In this document: in pieces, positions 13,997 to 41,190 of the stretch
Layout: every line of letters starts with the position of its first letter
How positions within the stretch are numbered: the first letter of the stretch is position 1
From: a virus
Taxonomy: Duplodnaviria; Caudoviricetes
Reading direction: 5' to 3' (one strand)
IMG/VR virus record: IMGVR_UViG_3300021185_002499
Location: 1-63,462 of that record
Length of the DNA stretch: 63,462 nucleotides
The notes under the pieces: model-generated
What the model was told of the DNA's origin: nothing
What the model saw: the letters and a program-made list of their open reading frames with translations, nothing else
Databases searched by the model: none
Translations under genes and position numbers: made by a program

Positions 13997-14029
13997 TTAC
14001 AGAGTAAGCACGAGGTAGTTTGGATAATA
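13997..14029 (+). promoter_or_regulatory. Putative early promoter, copy 1
   Basis: TTACA GAGTA AGCACGA GGTAGTTT GGATAATA. Confidence 0.65.
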
Positions 14030-14074
14030 TGGTTAGGCTTTGACCTTTGTTTTGAGAAATTAATATTTTTATTT

Positions 14075-14107
14075 TTACAGAGTAAACACGAGGGATAATG
14101 GATAATA
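14075..14107 (+). promoter_or_regulatory. Putative early promoter, copy 2
   Basis: TTACA GAGTA AACACGA GGGATAAT GGATAATA; ATG at 14132. Confidence 0.8.
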
Positions 14108-14131
14108 TATATGTAACAAAAAAACAATAAT

Positions 14132-14302
14132 ATGAAAACTTTTATAACTTACAAAATTAATAATGATTTCTTTGAATTAGATTATAATAATTATAAAGAA
14201 GAAGAGAAAGAAATGTTAAACTATATTAAAGAAAATAATATAAAAGAATTTAAAAGATTAGAAAATAATAAAGGTTATAGGTTTAATGTTTTTACAAAGT
14301 AA
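14132..14302 (+). CDS. Early micro-ORF (56 aa)
   Basis: MKTFITYKINNDFF..FNVFTK; stop codon lies inside promoter copy 3. Confidence 0.6.
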   Translation: MKTFITYKINNDFFELDYNNYKEEEKEMLNYIKENNIKEFKRLENNKGYRFNVFTK

Positions 14303-14324
14303 ACACGACCTCAACTGGATAATA
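14292..14324 (+). promoter_or_regulatory. Putative early promoter, copy 3
   Basis: TTACA AAGTA AACACGA CCTCAACT GGATAATA; ATG at 14350. Confidence 0.8.
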
Positions 14325-14349
14325 TATATGAACATTAAAACACACACAC

Positions 14350-14484
14350 ATGAATAAATATCTAATAACACTTGCACTCGAAACATTACTTGAACAGGTA
14401 GTTGACTCAAGAGAAAACTCTAACGATTACAAAGATCGAATAAAAGAAATTGAAGAACAAATAAAAATAGTAAAAAAACTTTAA
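14350..14484 (+). CDS. Early micro-ORF (44 aa)
   Basis: MNKYLITLALETLLEQ..; follows promoter copy 3. Confidence 0.55.
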   Translation: MNKYLITLALETLLEQVVDSRENSNDYKDRIKEIEEQIKIVKKL

Positions 14485-14495
14485 AACATACACGC

Positions 14496-14639
14496 ATGGA
14501 ATTTAATAGACTCGAACTCGAACTACTAAGATATGCAATGGAAGACTTTGCAAACAACGATCAACATACTGAATCAAGTCAATACAAAGCATTTGAAATT
14601 GTAACTAAAATAGATAAAATGATTAACAATATTAAGTAA
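14496..14639 (+). CDS. Early micro-ORF (47 aa)
   Basis: MEFNRLELELLRYAMEDF.. Confidence 0.55.
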   Translation: MEFNRLELELLRYAMEDFANNDQHTESSQYKAFEIVTKIDKMINNIK

Positions 14640-14717
14640 AATAAGTTAATTACACACATACACACACTGAACTACACCTATACCACTAAAAATACTAATA
14701 AATAAAACACATACCTT

Positions 14718-14894
14718 ATGACTAGTGAATTAAGTAAAAGAATAGCTAAACAAAATGCTAAAACTGAAAGACAAATGGGTTTCTATACTCTTGGTATGAA
14801 AAACGTTACACGAGTTACCTTCTCACGTAATGCTCAATGGAACCAAATAGACACAACTAAGGTTTACTATGCTCAAACCAAATTACAAGCTTAA
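14718..14894 (+). CDS. Early micro-ORF (58 aa)
   Basis: MTSELSKRIAKQ..QTKLQA; stop codon lies inside promoter copy 4. Confidence 0.6.
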   Translation: MTSELSKRIAKQNAKTERQMGFYTLGMKNVTRVTFSRNAQWNQIDTTKVYYAQTKLQA

Positions 14895-14915
14895 TACGTG
14901 TTTAAACGGATAATA
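14883..14915 (+). promoter_or_regulatory. Putative early promoter, copy 4
   Basis: TTACA AGCTT AATACGT GTTTAAAC GGATAATA; ATG at 14935. Confidence 0.75.
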
Positions 14916-14934
14916 TAAATGTAAAACAACTAAT

Positions 14935-15108
14935 ATGAAATACAATACTTCACTACATAACTACTTTAATCAACACAAATCACTTGGCAAACTATTCAAT
15001 GATATGAATGACGTAGACGTCGCTATTGATCCTGACCACAACACAAAAATGTACTTAAGAGGTTTGGGTATGAGTGAAGAAAAGATAAACAAAATAATAA
15101 ATAAATAA
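14935..15108 (+). CDS. Early micro-ORF (57 aa)
   Basis: MKYNTSLHNYF.. Confidence 0.55.
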   Translation: MKYNTSLHNYFNQHKSLGKLFNDMNDVDVAIDPDHNTKMYLRGLGMSEEKINKIINK

Positions 15109-15109
15109 T

Positions 15110-15283
15110 ATGTTACAACAACTACACGAAATACATGGCAAACTAGATATGCTACAAGACTTAAAAATACAAGGTCTAGGATTATCACTCGATCAACAAC
15201 AACAACTACTTATCATTCACCAACAATTGCTCGATCAAAAGTTTCAACTAGAAAGACAAATTAAAAAAGAATATATACTATGA
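15110..15283 (+). CDS. Early micro-ORF (57 aa, Q/L-rich helical)
   Basis: MLQQLHEIHGKLDML..; coupled to neighbours. Confidence 0.5.
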   Translation: MLQQLHEIHGKLDMLQDLKIQGLGLSLDQQQQLLIIHQQLLDQKFQLERQIKKEYIL

Positions 15284-15387
15284 TGAATCAATACTACTTA
15301 GAAGAAATGCTTGCTAATACAAGCTACACTGAAGAACAGATAACTGAAATGGAAAACTGGGAAATTGAAATGCACTTAGGATTATGA
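15280..15387 (+). CDS. Early micro-ORF (35 aa, acidic)
   Basis: MMNQYYLEEML..; ATGA overlaps at both ends. Confidence 0.5.
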   Translation: MMNQYYLEEMLANTSYTEEQITEMENWEIEMHLGL

Positions 15388-15530
15388 AAACTAAAGATAA
15401 ATTATACGACTTACGTCAAGCTATTGATGACCTTGTTGCGATCGGTCCAGACTATGCACACTTTATGAATGCACAAATTGCACACAAAAATTTAAAGAAG
15501 ATTAAAAAACTATTAGAATACGTAGGCTAA
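15384..15530 (+). CDS. Early micro-ORF (48 aa)
   Basis: MKTKDKLYDLRQAIDDL.. Confidence 0.55.
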   Translation: MKTKDKLYDLRQAIDDLVAIGPDYAHFMNAQIAHKNLKKIKKLLEYVG

Positions 15531-15543
15531 ATGCTATACACAA

Positions 15544-15576
15544 TTACAAGCCTAACACGAATAATATCGGATAATA
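15544..15576 (+). promoter_or_regulatory. Putative early promoter, copy 5
   Basis: TTACA AGCCT AACACGA ATAATATC GGATAATA; ATG at 15603. Confidence 0.8.
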
Positions 15577-15602
15577 TATATGAACATTAAAACAAAACAA
15601 AT

Positions 15603-15803
15603 ATGAAAACATTTGACAGATACAAACAAAACTTAAAACAAGTCGGTAACGACATCTATTCTTACGATACTGTTGTTGCACAAATAAAAGATAACAAGCT
15701 TCATTTGATGAACTGGCATGTACCCGGCGTTGGATCACACAGCGTTACAACGTCGAAGCATGTTAACTATGTAGCACAGCAACTTAATCTTGAAATAGCA
15801 TGA
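15603..15803 (+). CDS. Early hypothetical protein
   Basis: IYSYDTVVA..SVTTSKHVNY; follows promoter copy 5. Confidence 0.65.
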   Translation: MKTFDRYKQNLKQVGNDIYSYDTVVAQIKDNKLHLMNWHVPGVGSHSVTTSKHVNYVAQQLNLEIA

Positions 15804-16006
15804 AGAAATTAATATTACAAAGACATGACATTTATAGTCATTACTACAAGGATTTTAATGATGGAAAATTTTACGAGGTTAATGCCTTTGACGTTGATCC
15901 AATAAGCAATAGAATTGTAAATAAAGATTTTAAAGATTCAGATTTCAGCAAAAGAAAAGAAATTAAAGATGAATTTAAAAACCCAAAATTTATAGAAACA
16001 ATATAA
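15800..16006 (+). CDS. Early hypothetical protein
   Basis: ATGA-coupled ORF. Confidence 0.55.
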   Translation: MKKLILQRHDIYSHYYKDFNDGKFYEVNAFDVDPISNRIVNKDFKDSDFSKRKEIKDEFKNPKFIETI

Positions 16007-16010
16007 AAGC

Positions 16011-16211
16011 ATGACAAACACATGGATATTTTATGGTAACAACCATAGCGGAATTAAAACAATTCACTACATTAAACAATGTAAACGTCCTGAAGCGACA
16101 AGTGAATACAAAGAAATGATGCACTTATTAGAAAACAATACTTATTACACAACAGGATATATGACTAGTAAAGCATGGAATAAAGAAAACCAATATATAA
16201 AAGTAATATGA
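16011..16211 (+). CDS. Early hypothetical protein
   Basis: ORF in a tightly packed run. Confidence 0.55.
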   Translation: MTNTWIFYGNNHSGIKTIHYIKQCKRPEATSEYKEMMHLLENNTYYTTGYMTSKAWNKENQYIKVI

Positions 16212-16387
16212 ACAAACTAGTACAACAAATAGCAGATGAGTGTATTGATATAATTGATGAACAAATTGACAATACAATCCACTGGGAGTTAGATGTTAAT
16301 GACCTTGAAGGTGATGATCTAAGCAAATTAGAATTAAAAATAAAACAACAAATATTATTTACATTAATTAAAAAAGTAACAAAATGA
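16208..16387 (+). CDS. Early micro-ORF (59 aa, acidic)
   Basis: MNKLVQQIADECIDIIDEQ..; ATGA overlaps at both ends. Confidence 0.55.
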   Translation: MNKLVQQIADECIDIIDEQIDNTIHWELDVNDLEGDDLSKLELKIKQQILFTLIKKVTK

Positions 16388-16704
16388 ACGACATTTACAC
16401 ACAACTAGCACAAATTTTAAACGTATCTAAAATTACTGAAGACTATACAACCACCGCTGATCTACAAATTAGCGAATATATGACTGCTGATAGCTATGAC
16501 GTACACGTTATGACCAACGAACCCATGTCACTAATGTGGGATACTGATGTGTATCAATATCAACCATCATTCAACGACATTATCGATCGCATTAAAGATT
16601 TAGACGAAGATGCTATTGTATATGTAAGCGATTTTGAAACATACTTACCAGAATATGAGGTTGATGATTATCTTGAACAACACGAAGAAGAATTACAAGA
16701 TTAA
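16384..16704 (+). CDS. Highly acidic early protein
   Basis: D/E- and Tyr-rich, 106 aa; stop codon lies inside promoter copy 6. Confidence 0.65.
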   Translation: MNDIYTQLAQILNVSKITEDYTTTADLQISEYMTADSYDVHVMTNEPMSLMWDTDVYQYQPSFNDIIDRIKDLDEDAIVYVSDFETYLPEYEVDDYLEQHEEELQD

Positions 16705-16725
16705 CACGAAGTATAACGGATAATA
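16693..16725 (+). promoter_or_regulatory. Putative early promoter, copy 6
   Basis: TTACA AGATT AACACGA AGTATAAC GGATAATA; ATG at 16752. Confidence 0.8.
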
Positions 16726-16751
16726 CTAACGAACAACAAACACAAAATAAT

Positions 16752-16898
16752 ATGACCTTACGAGACGTAAATATATTAGACAAAATAAATCAACACAAAA
16801 CGCATACAATGCGTGAGAAAACTTTTATTGCTAAAAATAAATATCAAATAAAGTTACCAACTGAAACATTAAATGATTACTTTTACAATAATAAATAA
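16752..16898 (+). CDS. Early micro-ORF (48 aa)
   Basis: MTLRDVNILDKINQH.. Confidence 0.5.
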   Translation: MTLRDVNILDKINQHKTHTMREKTFIAKNKYQIKLPTETLNDYFYNNK

Positions 16899-16936
16899 CA
16901 CGACAATAGCAATTTAAATAACAGGCTAACGTCACA
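16899..16936. promoter_or_regulatory. Inverted-repeat site B (arms match site A in reverse orientation)
   Basis: CACGACAATAGC-N14-GCTAACGTCACA; intergenic. Confidence 0.6.
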
Positions 16937-16950
16937 TAAAACAAATTGAT

Positions 16951-17100
16951 ATGGGCAAACTAACCGTAACATATAAAGGAAAACAAATTGAATACTTAAT
17001 CAATACAGAAGTTGAAGAGCATGTAACTATGAAAGCTATAAATGATATATTAAAATACTTCCCTAAAGATGCACCTGTAGATTTTGTTGAATTATATTAA
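16951..17100 (+). CDS. Early micro-ORF (49 aa)
   Basis: MGKLTVTYKGKQIEY.. Confidence 0.55.
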   Translation: MGKLTVTYKGKQIEYLINTEVEEHVTMKAINDILKYFPKDAPVDFVELY

Positions 17101-17101
17101 A

Positions 17102-17134
17102 CTACAAGATAAACACGAAGCATAACGGATAATA
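17102..17134 (+). promoter_or_regulatory. Putative early promoter, copy 7
   Basis: CTACA AGATA AACACGA AGCATAAC GGATAATA; ATG at 17162. Confidence 0.8.
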
Positions 17135-18759: not shown

Positions 18760-18961
18760 AATAAATGCACTAAATAAAATACACACTAAACTTATCAATT
18801 GTACTAGAAAAGTACGTGAAGCTGAAGAGTTTAAAGGTTTCTGGTCTGATGATGATGCAGATGATGTTGAATCATCCAGGCAAATGCTACTAACCAGTGC
18901 TATTAAAGAACAAGAAATATATGAATATATTTATAAACTAATAAAAAATGACATTAAGTAA
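18746..18961 (+). CDS. Hypothetical protein
   Basis: Coupled ORF. Confidence 0.5.
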   Translation: MQTNKINALNKIHTKLINCTRKVREAEEFKGFWSDDDADDVESSRQMLLTSAIKEQEIYEYIYKLIKNDIK

Positions 18962-19229
18962 CGAAGAAATTGAACGCATTGCAGAATTAATATTTAAAAA
19001 AATATTAGATAAACAAGCTGCACTTGAAAAAGAATCTGAACACATATATCATATATATGACGATGTAGGTAATGTATCCGTTGTTAATGAATTAGCATTC
19101 TTACAAGTTGAATTAGATAGATGCAATGAATTAAAAGATAAATACGTTAATGAAGAGCAGTTTGAAAAAGCTATGCTACTTAAAGATAAGATAGCAGAAT
19201 TAGAATTAAAAATTAAAAACATAAAATAA
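18948..19229 (+). CDS. UvrB/UvrC (UVR) motif protein
   Basis: C-terminal EEQFEKAMLLKDKIAEL. Confidence 0.65.
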   Translation: MTLSNEEIERIAELIFKKILDKQAALEKESEHIYHIYDDVGNVSVVNELAFLQVELDRCNELKDKYVNEEQFEKAMLLKDKIAELELKIKNIK

Positions 19230-19639
19230 TGATAAAAAAAACAATACCCACAATATCTTTATCAGCTTTAAAACAATTAGTTGAAAAAGAATTAAAGATA
19301 AAAGACATAGCAGATAAGTGTAGATCAAGAGAGTTGGCTCAAGCAAGATTTATATACTATAAATTAAGTAAAAAGTTTCAACCCTTATCTAGCTTAGCAT
19401 CTATAGGTAAGCACGTTAAGCGTGATCACGCTACGGTTATTAATGGTTTAAACAAATGGGATAGTGAAATTATATATGACCCTTATATGGAAAAAGTATA
19501 TGATAGGATTAGCCTAACATTAGTTGAGTCTGCTACACTAATAGATCAAGATGAGAGTGCTTTATCACTACAAGCCTTAGAGTCAAGGATATCTGATTTA
19601 GAAGCTTCTTTAATTAATTATAAGTTACAAACCGCATAA
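19229..19639 (+). CDS. DnaA domain IV-like HTH protein
   Basis: RSRELAQAR..SLASIG..RDHATVING. Confidence 0.8.
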   Translation: MIKKTIPTISLSALKQLVEKELKIKDIADKCRSRELAQARFIYYKLSKKFQPLSSLASIGKHVKRDHATVINGLNKWDSEIIYDPYMEKVYDRISLTLVESATLIDQDESALSLQALESRISDLEASLINYKLQTA

Positions 19640-19641
19640 TT

Positions 19642-20010
19642 ATGCTATACACACACATTTTTGTATTATATTTGTTCTCTTTGTTTTCACAAGAAACAAC
19701 AGTTACAGCCACAATATATCACGCTGTAGCGGAACAAACGGATTCAACACCAGACACAACTGCAAGTATGTTTAAACTTGATTTAAATAACCCACGTAAG
19801 CATAATATAATAGCTGTGTCAAGAGATCTTGAAGCACTTGGTTTTAAATTAGGAACTAAAGTAATAGTTACGGGTGCAGGTGATTTAGACGGTGTATGGA
19901 ATATAGAAGATAGGATGAACAAACGTTTCACAAAACGTATTGATTTCCTTGTTAACACATCACTTAAGGGTGGTAAATGGGAAAACGTAAAGATTAAAAC
20001 AATCAAATAA
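19642..20010 (+). CDS. Exported 3D-domain (double-psi beta-barrel) peptidoglycan-acting protein
   Basis: Hydrophobic N-terminus; VTATIY..QTDSTP..TAS..IAVSRDL..GTKV..ED..RIDFL. Confidence 0.8.
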   Translation: MLYTHIFVLYLFSLFSQETTVTATIYHAVAEQTDSTPDTTASMFKLDLNNPRKHNIIAVSRDLEALGFKLGTKVIVTGAGDLDGVWNIEDRMNKRFTKRIDFLVNTSLKGGKWENVKIKTIK

Positions 20011-20111
20011 TGGGAAGAACAAAAGATTTGCTAATGCAAATGAATGAAGCGGAATTAAATAATTTAGAAATTATTTACGAGGTTATCCAACCAATCGATA
20101 ATAGTTCGAAG

Positions 20112-20158
20112 TGTGACGATAGTCAGTTATAATGTTATAGTAATAAGCTAATGTCACA
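20112..20158. promoter_or_regulatory. Inverted-repeat site C, overlapping the start codon of the HTH gene
   Basis: TGTGACGATAGT-N23-GCTAATGTCACA; the ATG at 20151 lies in the right arm. Confidence 0.65.
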
Positions 20159-20765
20159 TAGAAATACAAAATACCTTGATAATAAAAGAATAGTGTACAG
20201 GAGAAATCCTATTACAGATGTACCTACTGTATCTTTTGATTGGGGTAATTTTTATAAAGACGGTACTTATGAATGTTATGAGCTATTCAGAAGTAAAGCT
20301 AAGATTACAACTTATAAATCACTAAAGTGGCATGTATTAGTATTATGGTACTTAAACCCTTCTTTAAATAAAGAAGACTTTGAAGAGCTAGTATATTTTA
20401 TAGCAGATAAAGAAAATGGATTTGTTACATTCTTTACGCCTGAAAAAGTTATAAAAGATATAGTAAGCACTGTTATGCTACATGATTTAGAAGATCCACC
20501 TAAAAACAAACTCAGAAAAATAATTTTTAAAGATAATTCAGGTTTACTTATTTCACAAAAGATGTCTATAGTTGGGACATTGATTGGAAAAACAAAAAAA
20601 GCAGATGCTAGTGATATTTACGAAACAATGTTGTATCTTCACGATGGTAATGAAAAGATTACTATAAAAAAGATAGCAAATGTGTTAGATGTATCTACTA
20701 GAACCATATACCGAAACATGGATGCTAAGTTAAACCAAGAAAAAGAATTATTAAATGAGTTATGA
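20151..20765 (+). CDS. DNA-binding protein with C-terminal HTH (regulator or replication initiator)
   Basis: ITIKKIANVLDVSTRTIYRNM. Confidence 0.7.
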   Translation: MSHRNTKYLDNKRIVYRRNPITDVPTVSFDWGNFYKDGTYECYELFRSKAKITTYKSLKWHVLVLWYLNPSLNKEDFEELVYFIADKENGFVTFFTPEKVIKDIVSTVMLHDLEDPPKNKLRKIIFKDNSGLLISQKMSIVGTLIGKTKKADASDIYETMLYLHDGNEKITIKKIANVLDVSTRTIYRNMDAKLNQEKELLNEL

Positions 20766-21517
20766 AAAAATATAACATACAGAACTATGTAAGATATAAA
20801 ACAGACACCACAGAATGCATTGAATCAATACAAGAAAAAGATTACAATGAATACGAAAGAAACGAGCTGATAACAATATTGATGCCGCTCGTTGAAACTA
20901 TAGCTAGAAAATTCTCCACAGGAGAACAAGCCTCAGGCATACTTGACATTACAGACTTAATACAAGAAGGAGCCGTTGGATTAATATATGCTGTAGATAA
21001 AATTGAATGGGATGTAATAAATTCATCCACTGACCCTGAAAAAACTCTTAAATCATTTGTTTCAAAAAGAATTAAGGGTGCAATAAGGAGAGCTATTGAT
21101 ATAAATAGAGGTAACATACGTATTCCTGAGCATAAGTTAAATGAAATGCGAAAAAATACAGGAGAAGATAAACGTATTGTAGAAATGTTCTTTAATAGTA
21201 TATTTTTAAGCTTAGACAACACATTAAATGAAGACGGTTCTAGTTATGATGTGATTGATTCTAGTAAAGATTATAATATAGATTTAATGAATAAATACCT
21301 TTTAGGTATCATGGAAACTTTCTTAGATATAAGAGAGTATGATGTTCTTAGAATGAGTTACGGTTTAGACTGTGATAAGATGTCGGCTAAAGATATTGCT
21401 GAAAAGTTAAATATTAAAGGTACAGCATCATTTGTAAGAATATCACAAATAAAAAGAGAAGCTATTGATAAGCTAATCGAAAGTGTAGATCCATCACAAG
21501 TTATTGATTGGCAATAA
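20762..21517 (+). CDS. Sigma-70-family RNA polymerase sigma factor
   Basis: Region 2 DLIQEGAVGLIYAVDK..RIKGAIRRAI..IRIPEH; region 4 REYDVLRMSYGL..DIAEKLNI..RISQIKREAIDKL. Confidence 0.9.
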   Translation: MKKYNIQNYVRYKTDTTECIESIQEKDYNEYERNELITILMPLVETIARKFSTGEQASGILDITDLIQEGAVGLIYAVDKIEWDVINSSTDPEKTLKSFVSKRIKGAIRRAIDINRGNIRIPEHKLNEMRKNTGEDKRIVEMFFNSIFLSLDNTLNEDGSSYDVIDSSKDYNIDLMNKYLLGIMETFLDIREYDVLRMSYGLDCDKMSAKDIAEKLNIKGTASFVRISQIKREAIDKLIESVDPSQVIDWQ

Positions 21518-21572
21518 TTTATGAATCTATATCCATTTAAGAAATGAGTATTAACAAATAATATAATATAAT

Positions 21573-22133
21573 ATGACAATTCAAGAAAAATTAAGTTTAA
21601 TTCAGCAAGAGTTCAAAGCTAAAAAGTCGAGATATAATTCTTTTGGTAAATATAATTTTAGATCTGCTGAAGACATTTTAGAAGCACTTAAACCTATCAA
21701 TGAAAAGTATAAAGTATATTTTACTATTGAAGAGCGTGTTAGTGAAATAGCAGGCTTACCCATCATTCATTCTGTAGCAACTATGCATGATGGTGATTTA
21801 AGTATCTCTGCTACAGCTATAGTAGGTGTTGATTTAAATCAAAAAGGTATGCAAGTACCACAACAATTTGGATCAGCATCTTCTTACGGTAAAAAATATT
21901 CATTAGGTAATTTATTACTTATTGATGACACAGCAGATGCGGATGCTACTAATTCAGGTGCTGCTAAAAATAAACCTAAACTACTAAAAGGCTCAGAAAA
22001 CTGGGGTAAAGCTTTAAGCTATATTAATTCTGGAGGTGATATGAGTGCTATATTGAATAAATATACTGTTTCAATAGAGGACAAGTCAGAATTAAAATCC
22101 TATGAAGTAAAAGCTCGTAGTAAAAAATCTTAA
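21573..22133 (+). CDS. ERF-family ssDNA annealing protein
   Basis: KSRYNSFGKYNFRSAEDILEALKP..GSASSYGKKYSL..IDDTADAD. Confidence 0.88.
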   Translation: MTIQEKLSLIQQEFKAKKSRYNSFGKYNFRSAEDILEALKPINEKYKVYFTIEERVSEIAGLPIIHSVATMHDGDLSISATAIVGVDLNQKGMQVPQQFGSASSYGKKYSLGNLLLIDDTADADATNSGAAKNKPKLLKGSENWGKALSYINSGGDMSAILNKYTVSIEDKSELKSYEVKARSKKS

Positions 22134-32349: not shown

Positions 32350-32492
32350 TACTTAATATTTCCCCCTCTTTTACGGCATTTAGCAATATAACCAGAAGCA
32401 TATGCAGATGGAAATACTCTGTATTTAGCTTTTGCTTTATTATAGCAAGCGTCTTTCTTTTTAAAAGGGGATGTTACAATGTTATATTTCAT
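32349..32492 (-). CDS. 47-aa basic micro-protein
   Basis: MKYNIVTSPFKKKDACY..FPSAYASG..CRK; coupled at both ends. Confidence 0.6.
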   Translation of the reverse strand: MKYNIVTSPFKKKDACYNKAKAKYRVFPSAYASGYIAKCRKRGGNIK

Positions 32493-35400
32493 TTTCTTTT
32501 GAATTTTTTAGTTTTAAGACCAGTTTTAAACTTTTTAGTTTTAATAAAAGTTTTAGCTTTGCTTGGTTTTTTAGTATTTTTTTCAATCATTCCTAAATCC
32601 CATTCTGAATAACCTAAAGCAAGTGCTATTGATTGCCATAATTCAGTTTCAGATTCCATTGCAGTTTTTAAATGATCTGCCTTCATTATAGCTCTATCCG
32701 CAGGAAGATTAGTTAATGCGGAAACTATTCTACCTCCTGCTAAAAAAGCTGGATTGTCTAAGCTGAATCCCTCTGTTCTCATTTTTTCCTTATCTTGTCT
32801 ATAAGTAAAAGCTTTTGCAGCGGAGTTTAATTTATTTAATTTAGAGTTTATTGGCGGAGATAAAGAAGTTGCTTTCATAACAGCTTTTGTGTAGTCTGTT
32901 CTTTTAGCTTTGTTCTGTTTTATAATTTCAAGAATAACATTTTTAGATGTTGATGCTATTGCTCCGTACAAACCAGTTCCGCGTAGCAGAGTGTCCATTG
33001 ATCCATTTGCTATATTCCACAATCTATCTTTTTCTTTTTCATCTTCTTCATCGGAAAATAACAAAGCAAATAAAGCTTGTTGCAAGGCAGAGAACACTAT
33101 GTTTTGTATTACGCTATAATACATTAACTTACTCACATTTGTTTTCCAATCACCCCGACCTGCTATTAAATCTTTCATTGCCTTTTTAGTTAGTCTAGCA
33201 TATTGCATCGGTGTGTTAGCAAAAGCTAATATAACTCTTCCTAAGGAGCTCGCTTGTTGCATACTTATTCTATCAGGCCTAGAAGACTGCTGCGATTCTT
33301 CTGCAGTTTCTGCAAAATCTAAGAATGCTTGTTCTTGTGCAGCTTTTGGTTCCATTCCTTCTTTTACATATCTATTCAGTCTGTTTCTATAAAATGAAGC
33401 ACCTCCAACAGCAATAGCAAAACTATCAGCCATTTGAGTAGGTAAGAATCCAAACTTTAATATAGCATTGAAAGCAGCCCTAACTTTATTATCAGCAGTT
33501 GAAGCAGCACTAGCAATTTCATCAGCATTAACATCTGTTTTTAATCCTGCTCTTCTTTGCTTCAAAAAGTCTGAATTAAATAAAAATCCAAAATCATCCC
33601 AAAATTGTTTTTGATTAGCAAAAGACTTTGCTGCCATTAATGGGTTATTATCGGTAAAGTTTATAAAGTTTACTGCTGATATGGTTTGTAGTAAAGCAGA
33701 TCGAGCATTTAAGAACATGATAGACCCTACTGATCCATTAACCCACTCTAACCAAGCCCTTTCTAATTTATTACCACCTTTTCTACGGTTTCTTCCATCT
33801 TTCATTCTGTACAGAATGTCCGTAAGTGATTCTATATATTCTTTACCATATAAAGCACGCAGTTTATTAATATTAGGTCCTTCAAGTTTACCTTGTTTAA
33901 ATTCACCAAATATCTCCTCTACATTATCTATCCATTCGCTCATATACTCAGAACGCTTTACTTGGTTAACGTAAGAAAGCATATCTGTTGTTATTGTACC
34001 TTCCATCCAATTACCACTTGGATTTGAATATTCTCCAGGAGGCGCTAATGTAATAAGCTGATTAGCAAAATCTTTTAAAGCTTCGTTCTTATTTATAAAT
34101 TTAATAACCTCATTTACATCTTGTCTACTAGAACCTTCAGGTAAAGTATCTTGTTTATTCCAAATATACAACCTAACAACTTGTTCGTTTGTGTATCCAG
34201 TTTCGTTGGTTTTACCAAGTTTAGCAGGAGTATTGTTTATTCTCTTTTTTAATTCCGCCCATGCATTCATAGACATTTGCTTATCTGTCTCAAATTGACG
34301 GATAGCTTTAGCGAACGGAGTCAAAAGATTATCCTTATAAAACTGCATTTGTTGATCTCCTTTTTCTTTTCTAGCTAAAGTTGTATATAATAAGCCTACA
34401 AAATCTTCTGCAGAATATGGTACAAAGAATTTATATTTACCTTTACCTTTGCCTATTATAGATGCTTTATCGGCTGAATATTCTTTTGCAAATTCTACAC
34501 CTGAAGATAATTCAAGAAATTTGTTAAAGTCTGTACTTAAAGATTTAGAAAATTTAATCTGTACGCCTTTGCTATTGTATTTTTCAAAAGGATTTTCTGA
34601 TTCTAATAGCCATTTTTGATTGTTAGGATTTATTCCATTATTTATTTTTGCTATTTCAGGATTTAAATATCTTTGCCACCAAAAATCATTATACACATTC
34701 CATTCTTTACCATTTATTAAGGGCATGGACGAAGTATATTCTCTTAACTTTGCATTATCTTTTATTGAAAGAGCTATTAAAGTATAATTATCTTTTAAAG
34801 CCTTAAGTGCTTTTTGAAAATTAATATTTTTATCTAAAGATGCATTAATTAAAAAATTAAAAGCCCAAACATTAGGCACTGCATGCTCCCATTCTGCTTT
34901 TCCATTATTTATATTGTCAATAGAAGCAATTTTAGCACCCATTCTATGAGGATGTGCTTTTTCATTTGTGGATGCTTCTAGCATGTAATAAATTGCTAAA
35001 AGATCTTTTTTATATTCTAAATCATTAGAAACTTTATTTATAAAATTCCAAAAATCAGTAAACATTATATCTACTTTTTGATTATAAATGCTAATAGCCT
35101 CTTTTGTAGCTTTTTTTCTAATTGTTTCAAGTTTTCCAGTAAACTTAGCACTATGATTAGCCGGCACTTTAGAATATAACTTGTTTTTACCAAGTACAAT
35201 TTTTAATTCATTAAATTTTTTTCTAGCATAAAGATCTAAGCCATAATATCTTTCTTTATCTAATGCCATCATGCTTGGGCTAAATAAACCGGTAGGATAA
35301 TCAAGCCTTTCGGCTATTCTCTTTATAGAATCAAAATATCTATTTATATTTTTTTCTGAGTTTAAATCATAATATTCAATATTATTTTTATTTGCAAATG

Positions 35401-38400
35401 CAATTGCGCTATTTTTACTAAATTTAAAAGACACAGGGCGGCCAACCTTTAAACTTATTTGATCAATAAAATTATCAGAAATTGGAATGCCTTGCAGTTC
35501 CGCTATAGCTTGTGCTTTTTCTAAAACCTTAGGATCAGAAACAACTTCCATAGTAGCATCAAAAGCAAAGGCTTCCGCCACCGCCTCAACTATTGCTGTT
35601 TTTCTTGCACCTTTTGTTGACCCACCAACATCATTACCTAAAAAATATTTAATAAATTCAGCTTTTGAAATTTTCTTTTTAGTAAATACTTTATTTCCTT
35701 CTGCGGTACGCTCACGTAATTGTTTTCCTTCTTTATCTAATACAGGCTCAGCAAAATCTTTTAATCTTTTATTAAAAATAGATTGAGGCAAAGCTTCATA
35801 TATTGATTCAAAATTATTAGCAAGAAAAGATCTATAATCTTCACCTTTACCAAATAATTTAGAAATAGGTTTTTTAAGTTCTGTTCTAAAACTTTTTTCT
35901 AATTCTTTTTTAAAAGTTTTTTCGGTAACATTTGGTAACTTTGTACCAAAAGTTTTTCTTACAGCATCAAATACTACCGGCTTTATTTCATCGCTAATAT
36001 TCATTTTTTTACGTAAGCTTTGCAGTTCTTTAGTTGGTTTTTCTTCAACTATTTCACTTGTCTCTTCTGTTGTTGTATCAGTAACAGCTTTAGCTTCTGT
36101 AACATCTAGTTTAAACTCTGTATCTAATATACGATTGGCCGCTTCAATAGATCTGTTAGCTAATTGACCTTGCACGTATGTATTTAAAGTAGCTCCTTTA
36201 GAAGGATCATATGCATTGATAAGATCTAACAAACCGCGTTTTCCAATTTCAATTTCACTTTGAAGTAGCTCAAAATCAAAGCCGGGTACATCTCTGTATT
36301 TATTTGTAAGTCTTGTAGTTAATGGCTTATAAGCTTCAATTATTTCAAACGCGCCATCTTTACCTTTTTCTTCATATATTTTTTGAACTTTATTTGGAGG
36401 TATTTTTCGAGATTCTTTTCTTACTATTCCTTGTGTCTGTTCTTTTTCATCACCTATTAATTCTTTAGATAATTCTTTTTCAATAATACTTCCTTCAAGC
36501 TTATCAAATCCTTGAGCTATTCTTATTTGTTCCTTAGTAAGAGTACCTTTATCTACACTTTTATTTATGTCTCTTATAAAGTCAATTACATCTTGCCCTG
36601 TATTAAATTTTGTTTTTATTCCAAAAGTCTGCATAACAGATCTTATTCCATCTGATATTTTATCTTCATTTAACGTTATATCTCCTGATTTTAATGCATC
36701 AGAAAACAAAGTTAAAGCCTCTTCCGCTGCCTGAGAGCTGCTTACATCGGGGTCTTGTAAATATTCTTTTAATCTTTCTCTATATATTGAGTTATTTATT
36801 TGGTCAATATCTATTTTATTTAATTCTTCATTTAAAGCTATTGCTAGTTTTTTAGAAGCAGCTGGATTTTCTTTTAATGCTTTAAATAGTAAAGCATGCA
36901 TAAATTCATGATTTGCCACATTAACCCCCTCAGCGGTTTTAGATGCTTGACTAGAGTTTATTACTATTGTTTGCTTATCTGTATTTGGGTCTTGTATTAT
37001 AAAACCATAATCACTAGATTGTTTTTTAAGTCTATTTTTATCGTCTGTGTTTAAATACCCTTGTTTATCTAAAAATTCGTTTATTTGCTCTTCATTATCA
37101 AATTTTTCTATTTCTAAATTATCAACATATTGAGCCGCTCTTTTTACTTTTTCTGTTTGTTTAGTTAGCTCTTCAGCATTTTTTCTTATATTAAATATTC
37201 CTGTTTGGGCCTCAGCTATTCTTTGCTCAAGACCAAGTAATATTTCTTTTTTTGTATTGTTATCTAATGATGTATCATTATTTACCGCACGAGCTGTTTT
37301 ATTAGTTTGTTGTATTATTTCAGCTTTAGAGTTAATTTCTTTAATTTGATCATCAGTTAAAGAAAATAATATTTGATTATTTTTTTCAACATTTGATTTT
37401 ATTTCAGATATTAATTTATTTTGCTGTTCAGATATGCTATTAATAGACTCTTCCGAAAGCCCCTTTTTAAGTTTTGCTCTTTCTAAATCACCAATTTTAG
37501 TAATTTTTTTTCTTAAAGCAGAATAATCATCTTTATTTCTTAAATTAGCAGCACTTTTTATTCCTTTTGCTCCAAGCACAATGCCTGTTGATCCAAAAGC
37601 TCCTTGCAAAAAACTTTCATAACCTTCTTTAGAAGTCATAAACTTCCAAGCTTCTGCTTCCGCTTCTTGTTGAGTCTTACCCTCAGCTAGTGATGTGTTT
37701 ATTGTTTCTAAACCTACATCTACCCATTCTTGTGTGCCGTTAAATCCGGTTGTAAAAGTAAGGTCTATTATATTTTTTGTAATAGATGGGTTAGTTCCTA
37801 AAATAGATTTAGAAAGCCTATCTAGTCCAATTTTTTCTAATTTATATCTAAGTGCACCTATAGTTAATGGGGTTACTACATCAAACATGCCGCTTGCCTG
37901 TAGCTGTTCTAAATTCATGCCTTTTGTTTGCGCTAATATTCTATTATGTTCGGCAATAGTTTGACCTATTATTTCAACCCCTAATCCAACCCCTCCAGTA
38001 GAAGCGGATAAGATAGCACTAGAACCAACATTCATTATAGCATTAATTGCACCCCCCGCGCCATACGCTATATTTTTACCAATACTTTCATTTTTTGAAA
38101 TATCAGTAAAACCAAATGCAGGTTTTGTTAAAGTAGCATATTTTTTAAGTTTAGCTTCTTGCTTACCTAATTCAACTCTATTGTGTTTTAAAACTTTATT
38201 ACCAAACTCTTCACCAAATATATTGTAGGCTATATCTGTATCAGATAAAACCATATGATATAGATACTGACCATAATCATCTATTTGAGCAAATCTATTC
38301 ATAGCTTGTCCTGTACTATTAGCTATAGATTGCATTAAAGTTTTAGGTTTTTCTGGCGCTTCTTTTCTTCGCTCTATTTCAGCTTTAGATATTCTTTGAG

Positions 38401-38851
38401 TTTCTTCAAAAGCGGTTATAGGCTTTAATTCTCCTGCACTCTTTTTTTCTATTTCAGGTATTCCAAAATCAGTTAATATATTTCTAGCAACTTCTGACTC
38501 TTTTTTAGAGTACTCATCAGCTGTTACAATAACTTCTTCTAGCGGAACACTTGTTATAGCCCAACCCCCCTTTTCAAAAGGCTGGCCTGTTAAAAGAATT
38601 TCACCTTTTTCTGTAAAACCCGAAGAAGTAACTCCCGGCTTGGAATCCGTATTGGGCGCTGCATTTCCCTCCACAACCGCACCCGGTATTGTGGGGTCTG
38701 TCTTTCCCGGCTTTTTAGTTGATTCTCTATTATCAATTAATCCGCTTTCTTTAGAAGCTTTATCTATATAAGAATCAATATCCATACCAGATGCTTCTGC
38801 AGCTTTTTGTATCTGCTCTAGAGTGTATTCTTTTTCGTTTAGTTCAAACAT
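32489..38851 (-). CDS. 2120-aa multidomain putative injected virion protein (metallopeptidase motif plus sigma-70 region-2-like domain)
   Basis: Last of three genes after the tail genes (ejection-protein position). HEFMH..EE motif; GLLDLINAYDPSKGATLNTYV..L.NR sigma-like motif; helical C-terminus. Confidence 0.7.
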   Translation of the reverse strand: MFELNEKEYTLEQIQKAAEASGMDIDSYIDKASKESGLIDNRESTKKPGKTDPTIPGAVVEGNAAPNTDSKPGVTSSGFTEKGEILLTGQPFEKGGWAITSVPLEEVIVTADEYSKKESEVARNILTDFGIPEIEKKSAGELKPITAFEETQRISKAEIERRKEAPEKPKTLMQSIANSTGQAMNRFAQIDDYGQYLYHMVLSDTDIAYNIFGEEFGNKVLKHNRVELGKQEAKLKKYATLTKPAFGFTDISKNESIGKNIAYGAGGAINAIMNVGSSAILSASTGGVGLGVEIIGQTIAEHNRILAQTKGMNLEQLQASGMFDVVTPLTIGALRYKLEKIGLDRLSKSILGTNPSITKNIIDLTFTTGFNGTQEWVDVGLETINTSLAEGKTQQEAEAEAWKFMTSKEGYESFLQGAFGSTGIVLGAKGIKSAANLRNKDDYSALRKKITKIGDLERAKLKKGLSEESINSISEQQNKLISEIKSNVEKNNQILFSLTDDQIKEINSKAEIIQQTNKTARAVNNDTSLDNNTKKEILLGLEQRIAEAQTGIFNIRKNAEELTKQTEKVKRAAQYVDNLEIEKFDNEEQINEFLDKQGYLNTDDKNRLKKQSSDYGFIIQDPNTDKQTIVINSSQASKTAEGVNVANHEFMHALLFKALKENPAASKKLAIALNEELNKIDIDQINNSIYRERLKEYLQDPDVSSSQAAEEALTLFSDALKSGDITLNEDKISDGIRSVMQTFGIKTKFNTGQDVIDFIRDINKSVDKGTLTKEQIRIAQGFDKLEGSIIEKELSKELIGDEKEQTQGIVRKESRKIPPNKVQKIYEEKGKDGAFEIIEAYKPLTTRLTNKYRDVPGFDFELLQSEIEIGKRGLLDLINAYDPSKGATLNTYVQGQLANRSIEAANRILDTEFKLDVTEAKAVTDTTTEETSEIVEEKPTKELQSLRKKMNISDEIKPVVFDAVRKTFGTKLPNVTEKTFKKELEKSFRTELKKPISKLFGKGEDYRSFLANNFESIYEALPQSIFNKRLKDFAEPVLDKEGKQLRERTAEGNKVFTKKKISKAEFIKYFLGNDVGGSTKGARKTAIVEAVAEAFAFDATMEVVSDPKVLEKAQAIAELQGIPISDNFIDQISLKVGRPVSFKFSKNSAIAFANKNNIEYYDLNSEKNINRYFDSIKRIAERLDYPTGLFSPSMMALDKERYYGLDLYARKKFNELKIVLGKNKLYSKVPANHSAKFTGKLETIRKKATKEAISIYNQKVDIMFTDFWNFINKVSNDLEYKKDLLAIYYMLEASTNEKAHPHRMGAKIASIDNINNGKAEWEHAVPNVWAFNFLINASLDKNINFQKALKALKDNYTLIALSIKDNAKLREYTSSMPLINGKEWNVYNDFWWQRYLNPEIAKINNGINPNNQKWLLESENPFEKYNSKGVQIKFSKSLSTDFNKFLELSSGVEFAKEYSADKASIIGKGKGKYKFFVPYSAEDFVGLLYTTLARKEKGDQQMQFYKDNLLTPFAKAIRQFETDKQMSMNAWAELKKRINNTPAKLGKTNETGYTNEQVVRLYIWNKQDTLPEGSSRQDVNEVIKFINKNEALKDFANQLITLAPPGEYSNPSGNWMEGTITTDMLSYVNQVKRSEYMSEWIDNVEEIFGEFKQGKLEGPNINKLRALYGKEYIESLTDILYRMKDGRNRRKGGNKLERAWLEWVNGSVGSIMFLNARSALLQTISAVNFINFTDNNPLMAAKSFANQKQFWDDFGFLFNSDFLKQRRAGLKTDVNADEIASAASTADNKVRAAFNAILKFGFLPTQMADSFAIAVGGASFYRNRLNRYVKEGMEPKAAQEQAFLDFAETAEESQQSSRPDRISMQQASSLGRVILAFANTPMQYARLTKKAMKDLIAGRGDWKTNVSKLMYYSVIQNIVFSALQQALFALLFSDEEDEKEKDRLWNIANGSMDTLLRGTGLYGAIASTSKNVILEIIKQNKAKRTDYTKAVMKATSLSPPINSKLNKLNSAAKAFTYRQDKEKMRTEGFSLDNPAFLAGGRIVSALTNLPADRAIMKADHLKTAMESETELWQSIALALGYSEWDLGMIEKNTKKPSKAKTFIKTKKFKTGLKTKKFKRK

Positions 38852-38861: not shown

Positions 38862-40205
38862 TTAATTAAATGTTGGTAATCCTAATATATCACTAGGTGT
38901 AATATCATTATTTTTAGTATTAAAAAGATCAGGTCTTTCTTTCACCCATTTTCTAGCTGCTATTAACATTTTACTTTTTTCTGAAGAAGTGTGAATATTT
39001 TGCGTTATTACAGTCTCTATAAAGCTCATATAATCAGACGCATTTTTTAAATCATATTTTTCAGGTTCTATAGGATTACCATCATCATCATTTCCAAACG
39101 TTAAAGTGATTATTTTATTAACCTTATCATATTGTATAGGCGTATTACGACTAACTTCTTTAAATTGAGAAACTGGATCTTTAAGAATATTCTCTGCTAT
39201 TTCTTCTCCCATTAACTCAAAATCGTTCTTCTTTTCAGTATCAGCTGGATCCGGTTTAAACCAGTTTTTATACGTTTTTTGAGCAGCCTGTTTTAGTTGG
39301 CCTTTAAGCCATTCGTTTAATTCATCTTCAGTATTAATGCCATCGCCGTTTAAATCCGCACCAGCTAAATCAGCCTCTGTTTTTCCTAACTGATCATAAG
39401 CAATAGATCTTGCTTGATCTTTTGTAAACTTTAAGCCTCCTACATAATTTTCCATTTCTGAATTAAATTGACTTTGAGTCAATCCTTTTGTAGCCATATT
39501 TTTAGCGGCAGAATGCAGATTTTCTTGTGTTTCTTTAAATCCTTTCCAATCTTGAAGAATTGGTTTGTGCATTTTTTCAAGCTCATCTAAAGGTATAACA
39601 ATAGATTCTCCCTGCTTGTAGTTCTTAACCATTTCTTTAAAATCAGGATCCTCAGGGTTATCTTTATCAAATCTATCCATGCTAATAACCGCATTGTCTC
39701 CAATAATACTATACCCATCAGGGTCGTGCTTTATATTATCAAAGTGTGTAACAAACCCACTATTAGCTTTACTTAGTAAATCACCAGAGTCCAAATATTC
39801 TTCATCAGCTTTGTATAACTGTATGCTTCTTTGACGCATTCGGCTGATAGGCTCGTTAACACGCTCTTGTATTTGAAGACTTCTTTCTGCTTCTGAAAGA
39901 TTTGAATCATTAATGATTGATCTAGCAATATTTCTCACTTCGTGCATACTCATAGTTGCACTTGCTAAAAGTTTAGGGTGAACTTTTTCAAAATCATATG
40001 ATTCAATAGACTTTACTAATCTTGCGTTAACTTCCTCTTTTTCTTTTAAAGCTTTTTGATTAGCGGCGGCCTCCATCGCATTTCTCTTATTCTGCATTAA
40101 AGCGGCTCGCTCTCCTCTTATAACGGCTGGCCTTACAGCTTTCGCTAAATCTAACGGGCGGCCACCACCCATTGCTTGTCCAATTAATTTTGTATCTATT
40201 GCCAT
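38862..40205 (-). CDS. Putative internal virion / ejection protein
   Basis: Position, helical composition, DLNGDG loop. Confidence 0.55.
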   Translation of the reverse strand: MAIDTKLIGQAMGGGRPLDLAKAVRPAVIRGERAALMQNKRNAMEAAANQKALKEKEEVNARLVKSIESYDFEKVHPKLLASATMSMHEVRNIARSIINDSNLSEAERSLQIQERVNEPISRMRQRSIQLYKADEEYLDSGDLLSKANSGFVTHFDNIKHDPDGYSIIGDNAVISMDRFDKDNPEDPDFKEMVKNYKQGESIVIPLDELEKMHKPILQDWKGFKETQENLHSAAKNMATKGLTQSQFNSEMENYVGGLKFTKDQARSIAYDQLGKTEADLAGADLNGDGINTEDELNEWLKGQLKQAAQKTYKNWFKPDPADTEKKNDFELMGEEIAENILKDPVSQFKEVSRNTPIQYDKVNKIITLTFGNDDDGNPIEPEKYDLKNASDYMSFIETVITQNIHTSSEKSKMLIAARKWVKERPDLFNTKNNDITPSDILGLPTFN

Positions 40206-40216
40206 AATATTTTATT

Positions 40217-40864
40217 TTACCCAATGCCTGTCACAACCCTAGCGGCTCCAACTCCAATGTTTGCAATTCCCCCTACTAAACCTTCAGTTGCTTGTTTTCT
40301 AGCCTCATCTGCAGTTGCTTTTCTAGCCGCAGCTGTTTCGTACATTTGTTCTGTTCTGCTAAATTGCTTATTCTGCAAGTCAGCAGCGCCTCTAGCTTGT
40401 GCTGCTTCTAAGTTTTGTTGGCCTTGTGCTCTTGCCATTTGATTACGAGACTCTTGTTGACCTATATTTGCTGCAGACTGCTGTAGATTAGCTGAGGATT
40501 GTTGAGCAAGTGTTTGCGCTAAAGCAGCAATACCTGAGCCTCCTGCTGTGCTTCTTAACGACCCTAAGGTTCCAGCTAGAGCCTGTTGTTGTTGTTGCGC
40601 AGCAAAATCAGAAGCTTGAGTGCTTACTTTTAAATCTTCAAAAGCGTTAGTCATATTTGCTGTAGTATCTTCAAATTGAAACTGCTCATAAGCCTGCCTT
40701 TGTTTTCGTAAATCCGCCTTTGCTTCTCTCTGCTCTCGCCTTCTAGCTCCACCGCCTATGATACCGCCCGCAACGCCAGCTAATCCTTCCGCAATTTGAC
40801 CAAAAGCTCCTGGATCTGATTTTGCTACTTTCCCTAAAGATTGTCCAAAAGATTGTTCTTCCAT
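40217..40864 (-). CDS. Putative ejection (pilot) protein
   Basis: A/Q/G-rich with Gly-rich hydrophobic ends, as in podovirus ejection proteins. Confidence 0.65.
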   Translation of the reverse strand: MEEQSFGQSLGKVAKSDPGAFGQIAEGLAGVAGGIIGGGARRREQREAKADLRKQRQAYEQFQFEDTTANMTNAFEDLKVSTQASDFAAQQQQQALAGTLGSLRSTAGGSGIAALAQTLAQQSSANLQQSAANIGQQESRNQMARAQGQQNLEAAQARGAADLQNKQFSRTEQMYETAAARKATADEARKQATEGLVGGIANIGVGAARVVTGIG

Positions 40865-40866
40865 AA

Positions 40867-41190
40867 TTAATTACTGCTTAAATGTGCTTCTGTATTTACT
40901 GCAAATAGTTCAACTTTATCTGTTGATGTATTTATTAGTTTTACATTGGCATAATAGCCAATAATACCAGAACTGTTAATTTTATTGTTTTTTCCAAAGA
41001 ATATATAAGACTCTTCGGTAGGCCTAATAGCCTTATCCTCAATATCTGCTACAAAACTTTTTCTGTCTGTAGCTATTGATTTACATTCACCTACAACTGA
41101 AGTTTTACTGTTCAGCTGCTGATATATAATATCACCTGTTTGTAGTGAAGAATTAAGTTTATTTGTAAACGTTATAGTTATATCTGCCAT
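40867..41190 (-). CDS. Tail-associated protein
   Basis: Small beta-rich ORF directly after the tail gene. Confidence 0.55.
   Translation of the reverse strand: MADITITFTNKLNSSLQTGDIIYQQLNSKTSVVGECKSIATDRKSFVADIEDKAIRPTEESYIFFGKNNKINSSGIIGYYANVKLINTSTDKVELFAVNTEAHLSSN

Follow-up and report, generated by a model that had tools for sequence, protein, structure and literature searches.

A predicted, very diverged sigma-70 domain 2 in a giant, probable ejection protein of a Caudoviricetes genome

Introduction

Could a phage carry into its host, along with its DNA, only that part of a sigma factor which grips the host RNA polymerase? This question is raised by P0001, a giant open reading frame (ORF) of 2,120 amino acids (aa) in the genome of an uncultured marine virus of the Caudoviricetes (Duplodnaviria), IMG/VR record IMGVR_UViG_3300021185_002499, and the window analysed here is the whole of that record, 63,462 bases (CheckV completeness 100%, G+C 33.8%). 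Phages are known to start transcription either through the unaltered host holoenzyme or through an injected polymerase, the latter route being that of N4, crAss-like and phiKZ-like phages. For P0001, an original prediction made from the letters of the sequence had located a peptide resembling region 2 of sigma-70 inside the giant protein, and had proposed that the phage injects this sigma-like module in order to redirect the host polymerase before any phage gene is expressed. That proposal stands in part, with a sigma-2 fold, the gene order, the lack of a detectable polymerase gene, an HExxH motif and a predicted docking on its side; the module does not, however, appear to be a whole sigma factor.

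Evidence for a sigma-2 domain

The peptide singled out by the original prediction lies within the 2,120-aa protein as an exact match of aa 834-903 (the announced span, 36122-36360, encloses 36143-36352), and it carries the sigma-like motif G-x-x-G-L...Y-D-P-x-K-G...T-Y, aligned in region 2. An AlphaFold model of aa 800-1150 was built with a 67-sequence alignment and reached a mean predicted local distance difference test score (pLDDT) of 78.8, with 83-93 over the sigma-2 domain (model residues 20-110). In a VIA-align comparison of this model with 48,161 representative chains, sigma chains filled all of the first 29 rows, 28 of them named sigma factors and the remaining one chain F of 7d7d, the T4 late-transcription complex, which we take to be T4 gp55 (Z 8.2, root-mean-square deviation (rmsd) 2.9 Å over 90 residues). 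The best row was SigB (8x6g_H, Z 9.3, rmsd 2.6 Å over 86 residues), followed by pro-sigma-K (Z 8.3) and by RpoS, sigma-32 and AlgU (Z 8.1-8.2), and the sigma matches overall spanned Z 8-9.3 and rmsd 2.6-3.7 Å over 80-93 residues. We hold with high confidence that aa ~817-911, as modelled, form a real and very diverged sigma-70-family domain 2, extending over regions 1.2 to 2.4, so that the likeness to sigma region 2 first noticed in the letters is borne out as a sigma-70 domain-2 fold.

The sequence comparisons were made with several kinds of query. Searched against the sequences of the PDB, the 181-aa segment around the domain gave three matches at an expectation value (E) of 10 or less, and all three were sigma factors in region 2 register (FliA, two entries, E 0.3; the N-terminal domain of SigE, E 0.9). 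Since the full-length family profile yielded only noise in the PDB, a sub-profile of the domain (18 sequences, aa 812-930) was used, for which sigma-K (E 0.018) and the SigE N-terminal domain (E 0.025) came first and the next match followed at E 0.37. Sigma models accounted for eight of the nine NCBIfam families matched by the giant's own segment (SigK 0.0018, FliA 0.0033) and for 13 of the 16 matched when 18 family members were searched, and in the ESM Atlas PF04542 was found on 27 of 30 named-cluster hits (top score 0.95). A further reference is provided by the free-standing sigma factor which this phage family encodes itself: with a 12-sequence profile of that factor, hhalign aligned the domain in region 2 register (E 0.0015, probability 16.8%), and with the single free sigma the domain profile gave a probability of 1.4%, the alignment lying over region 2.

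These figures also bear on the thought that the likeness is convergent, an unrelated five-helix bundle having come to resemble sigma-2. The sequence E-values are all weak (best 0.0015-0.02), as such a bundle would lead one to expect, and a Z of 9.3 lies within the range that VIA-align calls common for helical proteins. Nevertheless, we judge convergence to be very improbable, since sequence profiles, language-model features, fold and docking agree, the sequence alignments all fall in region 2, and the top 29 structural rows belong to one family while the list returned for the adjoining domain B is mixed. Domain B (modelled alone, AlphaFold pLDDT 89.4, predicted template modelling score 0.85) was searched in the same way and gave only noise (best VIA-align Z 5.4, best Foldseek E 0.35), and the sigma signal is therefore no general property of helical models.

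The domain is a sigma-2 domain only and does not appear to be part of a whole sigma factor, with neither region 3 nor region 4 found. Apart from a weak site at 20631-20708, the free sigma gene was all that a six-frame search of the genome with PF04545 (region 4) detected, and for domain B, which lies downstream and is without a known fold match, no sigma-3 or sigma-4 chain occurs among the 50 VIA-align rows or the 50 Foldseek rows listed. Against BFVD, Foldseek found a single match for domain B, a giant protein of an uncultured virus, which gives no function.

Within the sigma-2 domain, the region-2.2-like helix is the most conserved part: P856, E866 and G873 do not vary among the 81 sequences, and L863 is kept in 77 of them. 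In sigma-70, the aromatic residues of region 2.3, including a tryptophan pair, open the -10 element. We assume the numbering Y430, W433 and W434 for these residues, and our presumed mapping of them onto the giant rests also on the PDB sequence alignments. Tyr892, aligned with Tyr430, is a tyrosine in 79 of the 81 sequences, and the positions of the tryptophan pair are occupied in the giant by Gly895-Gln896, position 896 being Phe or Tyr in 58 of the 81. The original prediction had taken the segment to include the -10-reading part of region 2, and with Gly-Gln in place of the tryptophan pair this part of the claim is not supported.

Family and spread

At 90% clustering the giant protein counts no fewer than 425 relatives, almost all of them unnamed proteins of 2,000-2,700 aa. 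With the domain profile, 327 representatives at 50% clustering were found at E<=0.001, and 274 of them at E<=1e-10; the best 150, which were listed individually, all have E<=3.5e-40. In IMG/VR, the same profile matched 204 stretches. The architecture was counted in those 209 homologues that match P0001 by BLAST and are 1,500 aa long or more, and the zincin-like region, sigma-2, domain B and the C-terminal domain occur together in 137 of them, comprising 104 with those four regions without a detectable N-terminal match and 33 with all six regions; a few homologues pair sigma-2 with other partners. The giant is a multi-domain protein whose blocks (N-terminal, HExxH, sigma-2, domain B and C-terminal) differ in affinity, some relatives having other combinations. 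By portal protein (87 records matched), the nearest cultured phages have as hosts Flavobacterium (68), Cellulophaga (15), Tenacibaculum (2) and Maribacter (1).

Predicted docking on host RNA polymerase

The original prediction had suggested modelling the module in complex with the beta-prime subunit of a Flavobacteriia host. We predicted with ESMFold2 the complex of the sigma-2 domain (alignment A2) with residues 1-420 of Flavobacterium johnsoniae beta-prime (RPOC_FLAJ1), and the region-2.2-like helix was placed on beta-prime with a docking score of 0.65, versus 0.00 for the best of three controls; the same mark was attained by 58 of the 80 solved complexes and by 2 of the 110 mismatched pairs. 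The runs agree in at least 14% of the contacts, with a pLDDT of the partner of at least 71. The predicted contacts join aa 856-875 of the giant (interface residues 856-857, 859, 861-862, 865, 869-870 and 875) to residues 41-47 and 291-312 of beta-prime, the latter of which we take, by their position, to be the clamp helices. Because complexes of sigma with beta-prime have been solved many times, this pass shows likeness to them and not binding by the giant's copy.

Architecture of the giant protein and gene neighbourhood

The features of the window are collected in Table 1. Across 43 homologues, the giant protein has two strongly conserved blocks, aa 851-1100 (column identity 0.58-0.72) and aa 1451-2100 (0.41-0.81), while most of the first 600 residues and the middle, aa 1151-1400, are weakly conserved (11-23% identity). 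An HExxH motif had been reported as a neighbour of the sigma-like segment, with the suggestion that such a peptidase could release it, and an invariant HExxH...E indeed lies upstream: H648, E649, H652, Y697 and E711 are invariant in the 43 sequences. Pfam gave for this region a weak match to Peptidase_M78 only (E 0.11), and phmmer found no sequence match for it in the PDB. Between the sigma-2 domain and domain B, the acidic linker keeps F913, D916, V917 and E919 invariant in the 43 sequences, and its pLDDT falls below 50 at model residues 117-141.

Three junctions between conserved blocks carry a K-(F/E)-S-K-S motif, whose position is kept across the 43 homologues. Exact FSK occurs in the 10-residue alignment bins of borders 1, 2 and 3 in 13, 29 and 18 of the 43 sequences, most of the others having close variants (ESK, and ASK at border 3), and 0.71 FSK per protein is expected from composition. 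These motifs may be cleavage sites, as candidates proposed from the sequence, and borders 1 and 2 frame 326 residues (36.7 kDa) containing the sigma-2 domain (isoelectric point (pI) 5.4), the linker (pI 4.2) and domain B (pI 9.5).

In the C-terminal domain there is one hydrophobic helix (aa 1914-1932, hydropathy peak), no significant match of that domain was found in Pfam, PHROGs or the PDB, and the ESM Atlas offers LPD39 and LPD38 as leads only. The last 30 residues of the giant protein include 15 Lys/Arg and no acidic residue. The variable middle region contains, at aa ~1255-1330 (window ~34860-35090, minus strand), a conserved E-H-x-x-P (EWEHAVP) together with a sub-threshold Pfam match to Endonuclease_1 (E 0.018), and this region may be a nuclease module.

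Table 1. Coordinates of the giant protein, its parts and other features of the window
Feature	Position	Strand	Basis
Giant ORF P0001, 2,120 aa, 238 kDa, without cysteine	32489..38851	minus	ORF list, translation, composition
N-terminal glycine-rich domain and coiled coil, aa 271-558	37178..38041	minus	hhalign to giants of cultured relatives
HExxH...E zincin-like region, aa 601-811	36419..37051	minus	invariant residues, 43 sequences
HEFMH, aa 648-652	36896-36910	minus	translation
Border motif 1, aa 812-816, KESRK here (KFSKS or KESKS in relatives)	36404..36418	minus	alignment A1
Sigma-2-like domain, aa 817-911, regions 1.2 to 2.4 by fold	36119..36403	minus	AlphaFold, VIA-align, Foldseek
Peptide of the original prediction, aa 834-903, 70 residues	36143..36352	minus	exact string match
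Region-2.2-like helix, aa 856-875, predicted beta-prime contact	36227..36286	minus	complex prediction, conservation
Acidic linker, aa 912-945 (DTEFxLDVTE...), conserved, predicted disordered	36017..36118	minus	alignment, pLDDT, pI
Domain B, aa 946-1142, conserved, basic, helical	35426..36016	minus	AlphaFold, fold searches
Border motif 2, aa 1143-1147, KFSKN	35411..35425	minus	alignment A1
Variable middle region, aa 1148-1432, with EWEHAVP	34556..35410	minus	column identity 0.11-0.21
Border motif 3, aa 1433-1437, KFSKS	34541..34555	minus	alignment A1
Conserved C-terminal domain, aa 1438-2090	32582..34540	minus	conservation 0.41-0.81
Three genes upstream of the giant ORF (447, 215 and 107 aa; small-medium-large series)	38862..41190	minus	ORF list
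Muzzle-like virion protein, 3,004 aa	41193..50207	minus	PF25729 crAss_MUZ_C E 4.3e-11; phrog_14478 'virion structural protein' E 5e-128
Seven copies of TTACA-N8-ACG-N9-GGATAAT, promoter-like	13997..17133	plus	before small early-region genes; 7 vs 0.27 expected (shuffles)
Free-standing complete phage sigma factor, 251 aa, rival promoter reader	20762..21517	plus	Pfam r2 and r4 matches just below cut-offs

The giant ORF sits in a late, minus-strand virion operon and is preceded, on that strand, by the terminase and portal genes and by capsid-type genes. As had been claimed, its gene is the last of a small-medium-large series that follows the tail/muzzle gene, which is confirmed by the ORF list and by PHROG and Pfam matches (the 107-aa protein matches phrog_18548), and the small-medium-large order is the same in relatives. 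The muzzle-like protein is about twice as long as its counterparts in relatives (1,324-1,551 aa). The giant protein itself matches no PHROG family, and its N-terminal domain is homologous, by hhalign of alignment A1, to two giants of cultured relatives, that of an Elemovirus (MT497118.1, 3,667 aa; probability 97.4, E 1e-11) and gp101 of Cellulophaga phage phi38:1 (Callevirus, 1,691 aa; probability 94.3, E 1e-7), both of which have the same gene position and are labelled 'structural protein' (gp101 by similarity).

The suggestion that the phage does not inject a whole polymerase also found support. The giant protein has no D-x-D-x-D (DFDxD) motif and no PDB polymerase sequence match at E<=1, and a search of the genome with PF00623 (RNA polymerase) found none, the control having matched in 14 of 14 genomes; PF00940 likewise found none, a result which is uninformative because its control matched in no genome either.

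A proposed delivered docking module and its alternatives

Taken together, these observations give rise to the thought that the giant protein would be packed in the particle and leave it with the DNA, like the cargo encoded at the same gene position in crAss-like phages. It would perhaps be cut at its K-F-S-K-S-like borders into pieces, including a 37-kDa unit of sigma-2 and domain B, and the sigma-2 domain would then use its region-2.2-like helix to dock on the host core polymerase at the clamp helices of beta-prime, which are the seat of the host sigma. Docked in this way, the module would hold polymerase at the genome as it enters, in competition with the host sigma. That the module is delivered and docks on the host polymerase without reading promoters is the reading which we prefer, and we put it forward tentatively, as a possibility about which doubt prevails; that a docked module would also select or open promoters is a separate and less likely step.

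Several points weigh against this reading. As regards the domain, the comparisons with Sigma70_r2 and Foldseek suggested by the original prediction are divided: all 12 Foldseek rows at a probability of at least 0.95 were sigma chains (e.g., 5uhb_F, 77 columns, 2.6 Å, 25% identity), but none reached E<=0.001, and Pfam Sigma70_r2 (PF04542) misses the whole protein, the 181-aa segment (E<=10) and all family members (0/18). The full-length family profile found no sigma in the PDB, its 11 matches being mostly helical repeats, and VIA-align warns that a Z below about 13 can reflect a common arrangement among helical proteins. As regards docking, the three runs scored 0.16, 0.65 and 0.70, the beta-prime was that of F. 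johnsoniae as a stand-in and was folded without an alignment, and the pass may stem from the predictor's memory of solved sigma/beta-prime complexes. As regards delivery, we infer packaging and ejection from gene order, labels in relatives and N-terminal homology only, and cleavage at the border motifs from their sequence. The 'structural protein' labels are record annotations by similarity, the N-terminal domain is the only one which those proteins have in common with the giant, and sigma-2 was not detected in the Elemovirus giant or in phi38:1 gp101 (hhalign probability 0.25 and 2.2), nor in the 3,859-aa giant of MW202828.1. Furthermore, tblastn of the giant protein found no match in 50,697 phage records, and its family is known from sequences. 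The literature on Cellulophaga phage proteomics yielded nothing on the giant protein, and gp100 and gp101 go unmentioned in the accessible text of PMC13288928.

The same observations allow a different use of the fold. The sigma-2 domain may have been reused without any RNA polymerase, for instance as a protein-protein or DNA-end-binding module in the particle or the ejection channel, in which case its conservation would reflect constraints of assembly. The domain is indeed far from canonical sigma (none in Pfam; hhalign probability of 16.8% against the phage's own sigma), it always lies, among the matches listed, within giant multi-domain proteins, and the flanking domain B and C-terminal domain are equally conserved and without known fold; the lack of cysteine and the hydrophobic helix would suit a protein that travels unfolded. 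We consider such a reuse rather unlikely, given that the most conserved stretch is the region-2.2-like helix, that is, the predicted beta-prime contact, and that every sigma-2 domain known to us binds an RNA polymerase.

Alternatively, the module may bind the host polymerase without being ejected, either because it is made late and, for example, sequesters core enzyme in the producing cell, or because it is packaged and stays unreleased. The place of the gene in the late minus-strand virion operon is in keeping with this. Its position is also, in the accessible literature, that of ejected cargo in crAss-like phages, and the N-terminal domain is homologous to giants labelled structural in cultured relatives, both of which argue against a protein that stays behind; we find this alternative improbable.

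Early promoters and the free-standing sigma factor

If a delivered module docks on the host polymerase, as we prefer to think, the question arises of which protein reads the early promoters. The tripartite motif TTACA-N8-ACG-N9-GGATAAT (at most two mismatches) forms clusters of 4-13 single-strand copies in 12 of 12 near-complete IMG/VR relatives (G001-G012), with 0-2 copies in the reversed control, and all 12 carry the sigma-2 giant; two sister phages without a detectable sigma-2 domain have 1 and 0 motif matches and no cluster. The free-standing sigma factor, whose family profile matches SigA and FliA in the PDB at E 1e-10, and whose gene, matched at 20870-21013, is all that a six-frame search of the genome with PF04542 detected, was found in the same 12 of 12 relatives and in neither sister phage. 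Since all three traits (motif cluster, free sigma, sigma-2 giant) are inherited together, their co-occurrence cannot tell which protein reads the motif.

Some variation within the family is worth recording. The motif is better kept than the proteins, with variants in G012 (TGATAAT), G009 (another middle box) and G008 (TACGG). In G003, the only one of the relatives with direct terminal repeats, a motif copy lies inside the repeat (19-50 and 63836-63867) and the cluster fills the last 3.4 kb of the record; this motif-bearing repeat may represent either a real end of the genome or an overlap from assembly. Among G007 (L097, L100), G004 (L098, L101) and G005 (L099), one relative has the free sigma gene twice, and in the two others its match falls into two pieces, the G004 piece containing two TAA stops. 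Contigs of two metatranscriptome libraries cover much of 13500-22000 at low depth, in which starts, strand and level are not readable, and the bin 13784-14067, between divergent operons, is nearly empty in both. Upstream of the late genes, no clear second motif was seen.

In the full form of the original prediction, the ejected module, probably sigma-2 together with domain B, could itself be a true minimal sigma, by which the tripartite promoters are recognised and opened ahead of all phage protein synthesis. T4 gp55 is a sigma-2-only sigma that reads a -10-like element, and 7d7d_F, which we take to be gp55, matches the model at Z 8.2. The fold and docking evidence counts here as well, and so do the motif, with seven copies against 0.27 expected, on one strand at 14-17 kb, present in 12 of 12 relatives and without a cluster in the two sister phages, and its unlikeness to what we take to be the Bacteroidota -33/-7 consensus. 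As the free sigma gene is itself situated downstream of the promoters, its product would not be available at time zero unless packaged. Furthermore, Tyr892 (by our assumed mapping) is kept in 79 of 81 sequences, 58 of the 81 have Phe or Tyr at position 896, and the basic domain B (pI 9.5) stands behind an acidic linker. A single genome, G012, alone among the complete ones, combines the TGATAAT box with R872G and E903A in the sigma-2 domain, both positions being otherwise near-invariant.

The points on the other side lead us to regard a minimal sigma of this kind as unlikely. No region 4 or other known DNA-reading fold appeared in the searches, the tryptophan-pair positions are Gly895 and Gln896, and the free sigma has the same distribution, being found in all 12 relatives and in neither of the two sister phages. 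The free sigma of G012 also has unique changes, G012 is one lineage, and eight further contigs of its subclade are without the early region. The contigs from the RNA libraries over the early region cannot reveal transcript starts. In phi14:2, according to the accessible part of the published account, the host polymerase transcribes phage promoters with a different tripartite motif, two blocks of which resemble -35 and -10, and these promoters are transcribed in vitro by the E. coli sigma-70 holoenzyme. In the phi14:2 record, the motif found here gave only noise (29 matches at up to three mismatches versus 18 in the reversed control, none below two mismatches). Because the phi14:2 promoters work with host polymerase, the host enzyme alone stays a candidate reader of the tripartite motif here. 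In its most specific form, the idea would have the giant protein packed, ejected and cut, and the freed 37-kDa piece act as a new two-domain sigma which reads TTACA-N8-ACG-N9-GGATAAT before phage expression, for which the chances seem slim.

Comparison with known systems

The nearest counterpart of the module is domain sigma-2 of sigma-70 (PF04542), with which it has the fold and the region 2 motif in common, the closest members being group 3 factors (SigB, sigma-K, SigE, FliA). Unlike these, the giant's copy is missed by curated profiles, is embedded in 2,120 aa with no region 3 or 4 found, and has Gly-Gln for the tryptophan pair. T4 gp55, presumably the 7d7d_F chain, likewise comes from a phage, consists of a sigma-2 module only and has a similar fold; it differs in being small, free and made during infection, whereas the module described here is embedded in a protein of the virion operon. 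For its function, T4 gp55 needs gp33 and the sliding clamp.

In gene position, giant size and a putative zincin-like HExxH region, P0001 resembles the virion polymerase block gp65-gp66-gp67 of phi14:2 and gp50 of N4, which likewise lie after the tail/muzzle genes. In the accessible part of the published account, the proteins of the phi14:2 block form part of the virion and are delivered along with the DNA, and some phages have them fused as a single polyprotein. In contrast to these systems, no polymerase was found here, and its place is taken by a domain that fits the host's polymerase. The polyvalent proteins (Iyer et al. 2017, PMC5512222), as far as the accessible text goes, are alike in their giant size, their unrelated modules and their zincin-like region (putative in P0001), and they have been proposed to enter with the DNA and jump-start transcription, the zincin-like peptidase being thought to process them. 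The word 'sigma' occurs 0 times in the main text of PMC5512222 (supplements outside this count), and P0001 differs in having no Pfam LPD domain, only the ESM Atlas leads to LPD38 and LPD39. The giants of Elemovirus MT497118.1 and of Callevirus phi38:1 (gp101) have in common with P0001 the gene position and the N-terminal glycine-rich domain; no sigma-2 was detected in them, and the Elemovirus record is also without the promoter motif and the free sigma. Within the accessible texts covered by our literature search (PMC5512222 and PMC7824862 included, supplements excluded), no virion or ejection protein was described as carrying a sigma domain.

With 327 representatives and 204 IMG/VR stretches the family is a large one, and its portal relatives infect marine and freshwater flavobacteria, so that a mechanism of this kind would matter for common ocean phages. 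Should the 37-kDa piece prove to be a two-domain sigma, it would add a third podovirus start route beside the host holoenzyme and the injected polymerase. More generally, if the reading which we prefer is true, a sigma-type docking domain in a probable ejection protein would represent an intermediate strategy, in which the phage brings with it only the part that grips the host enzyme.

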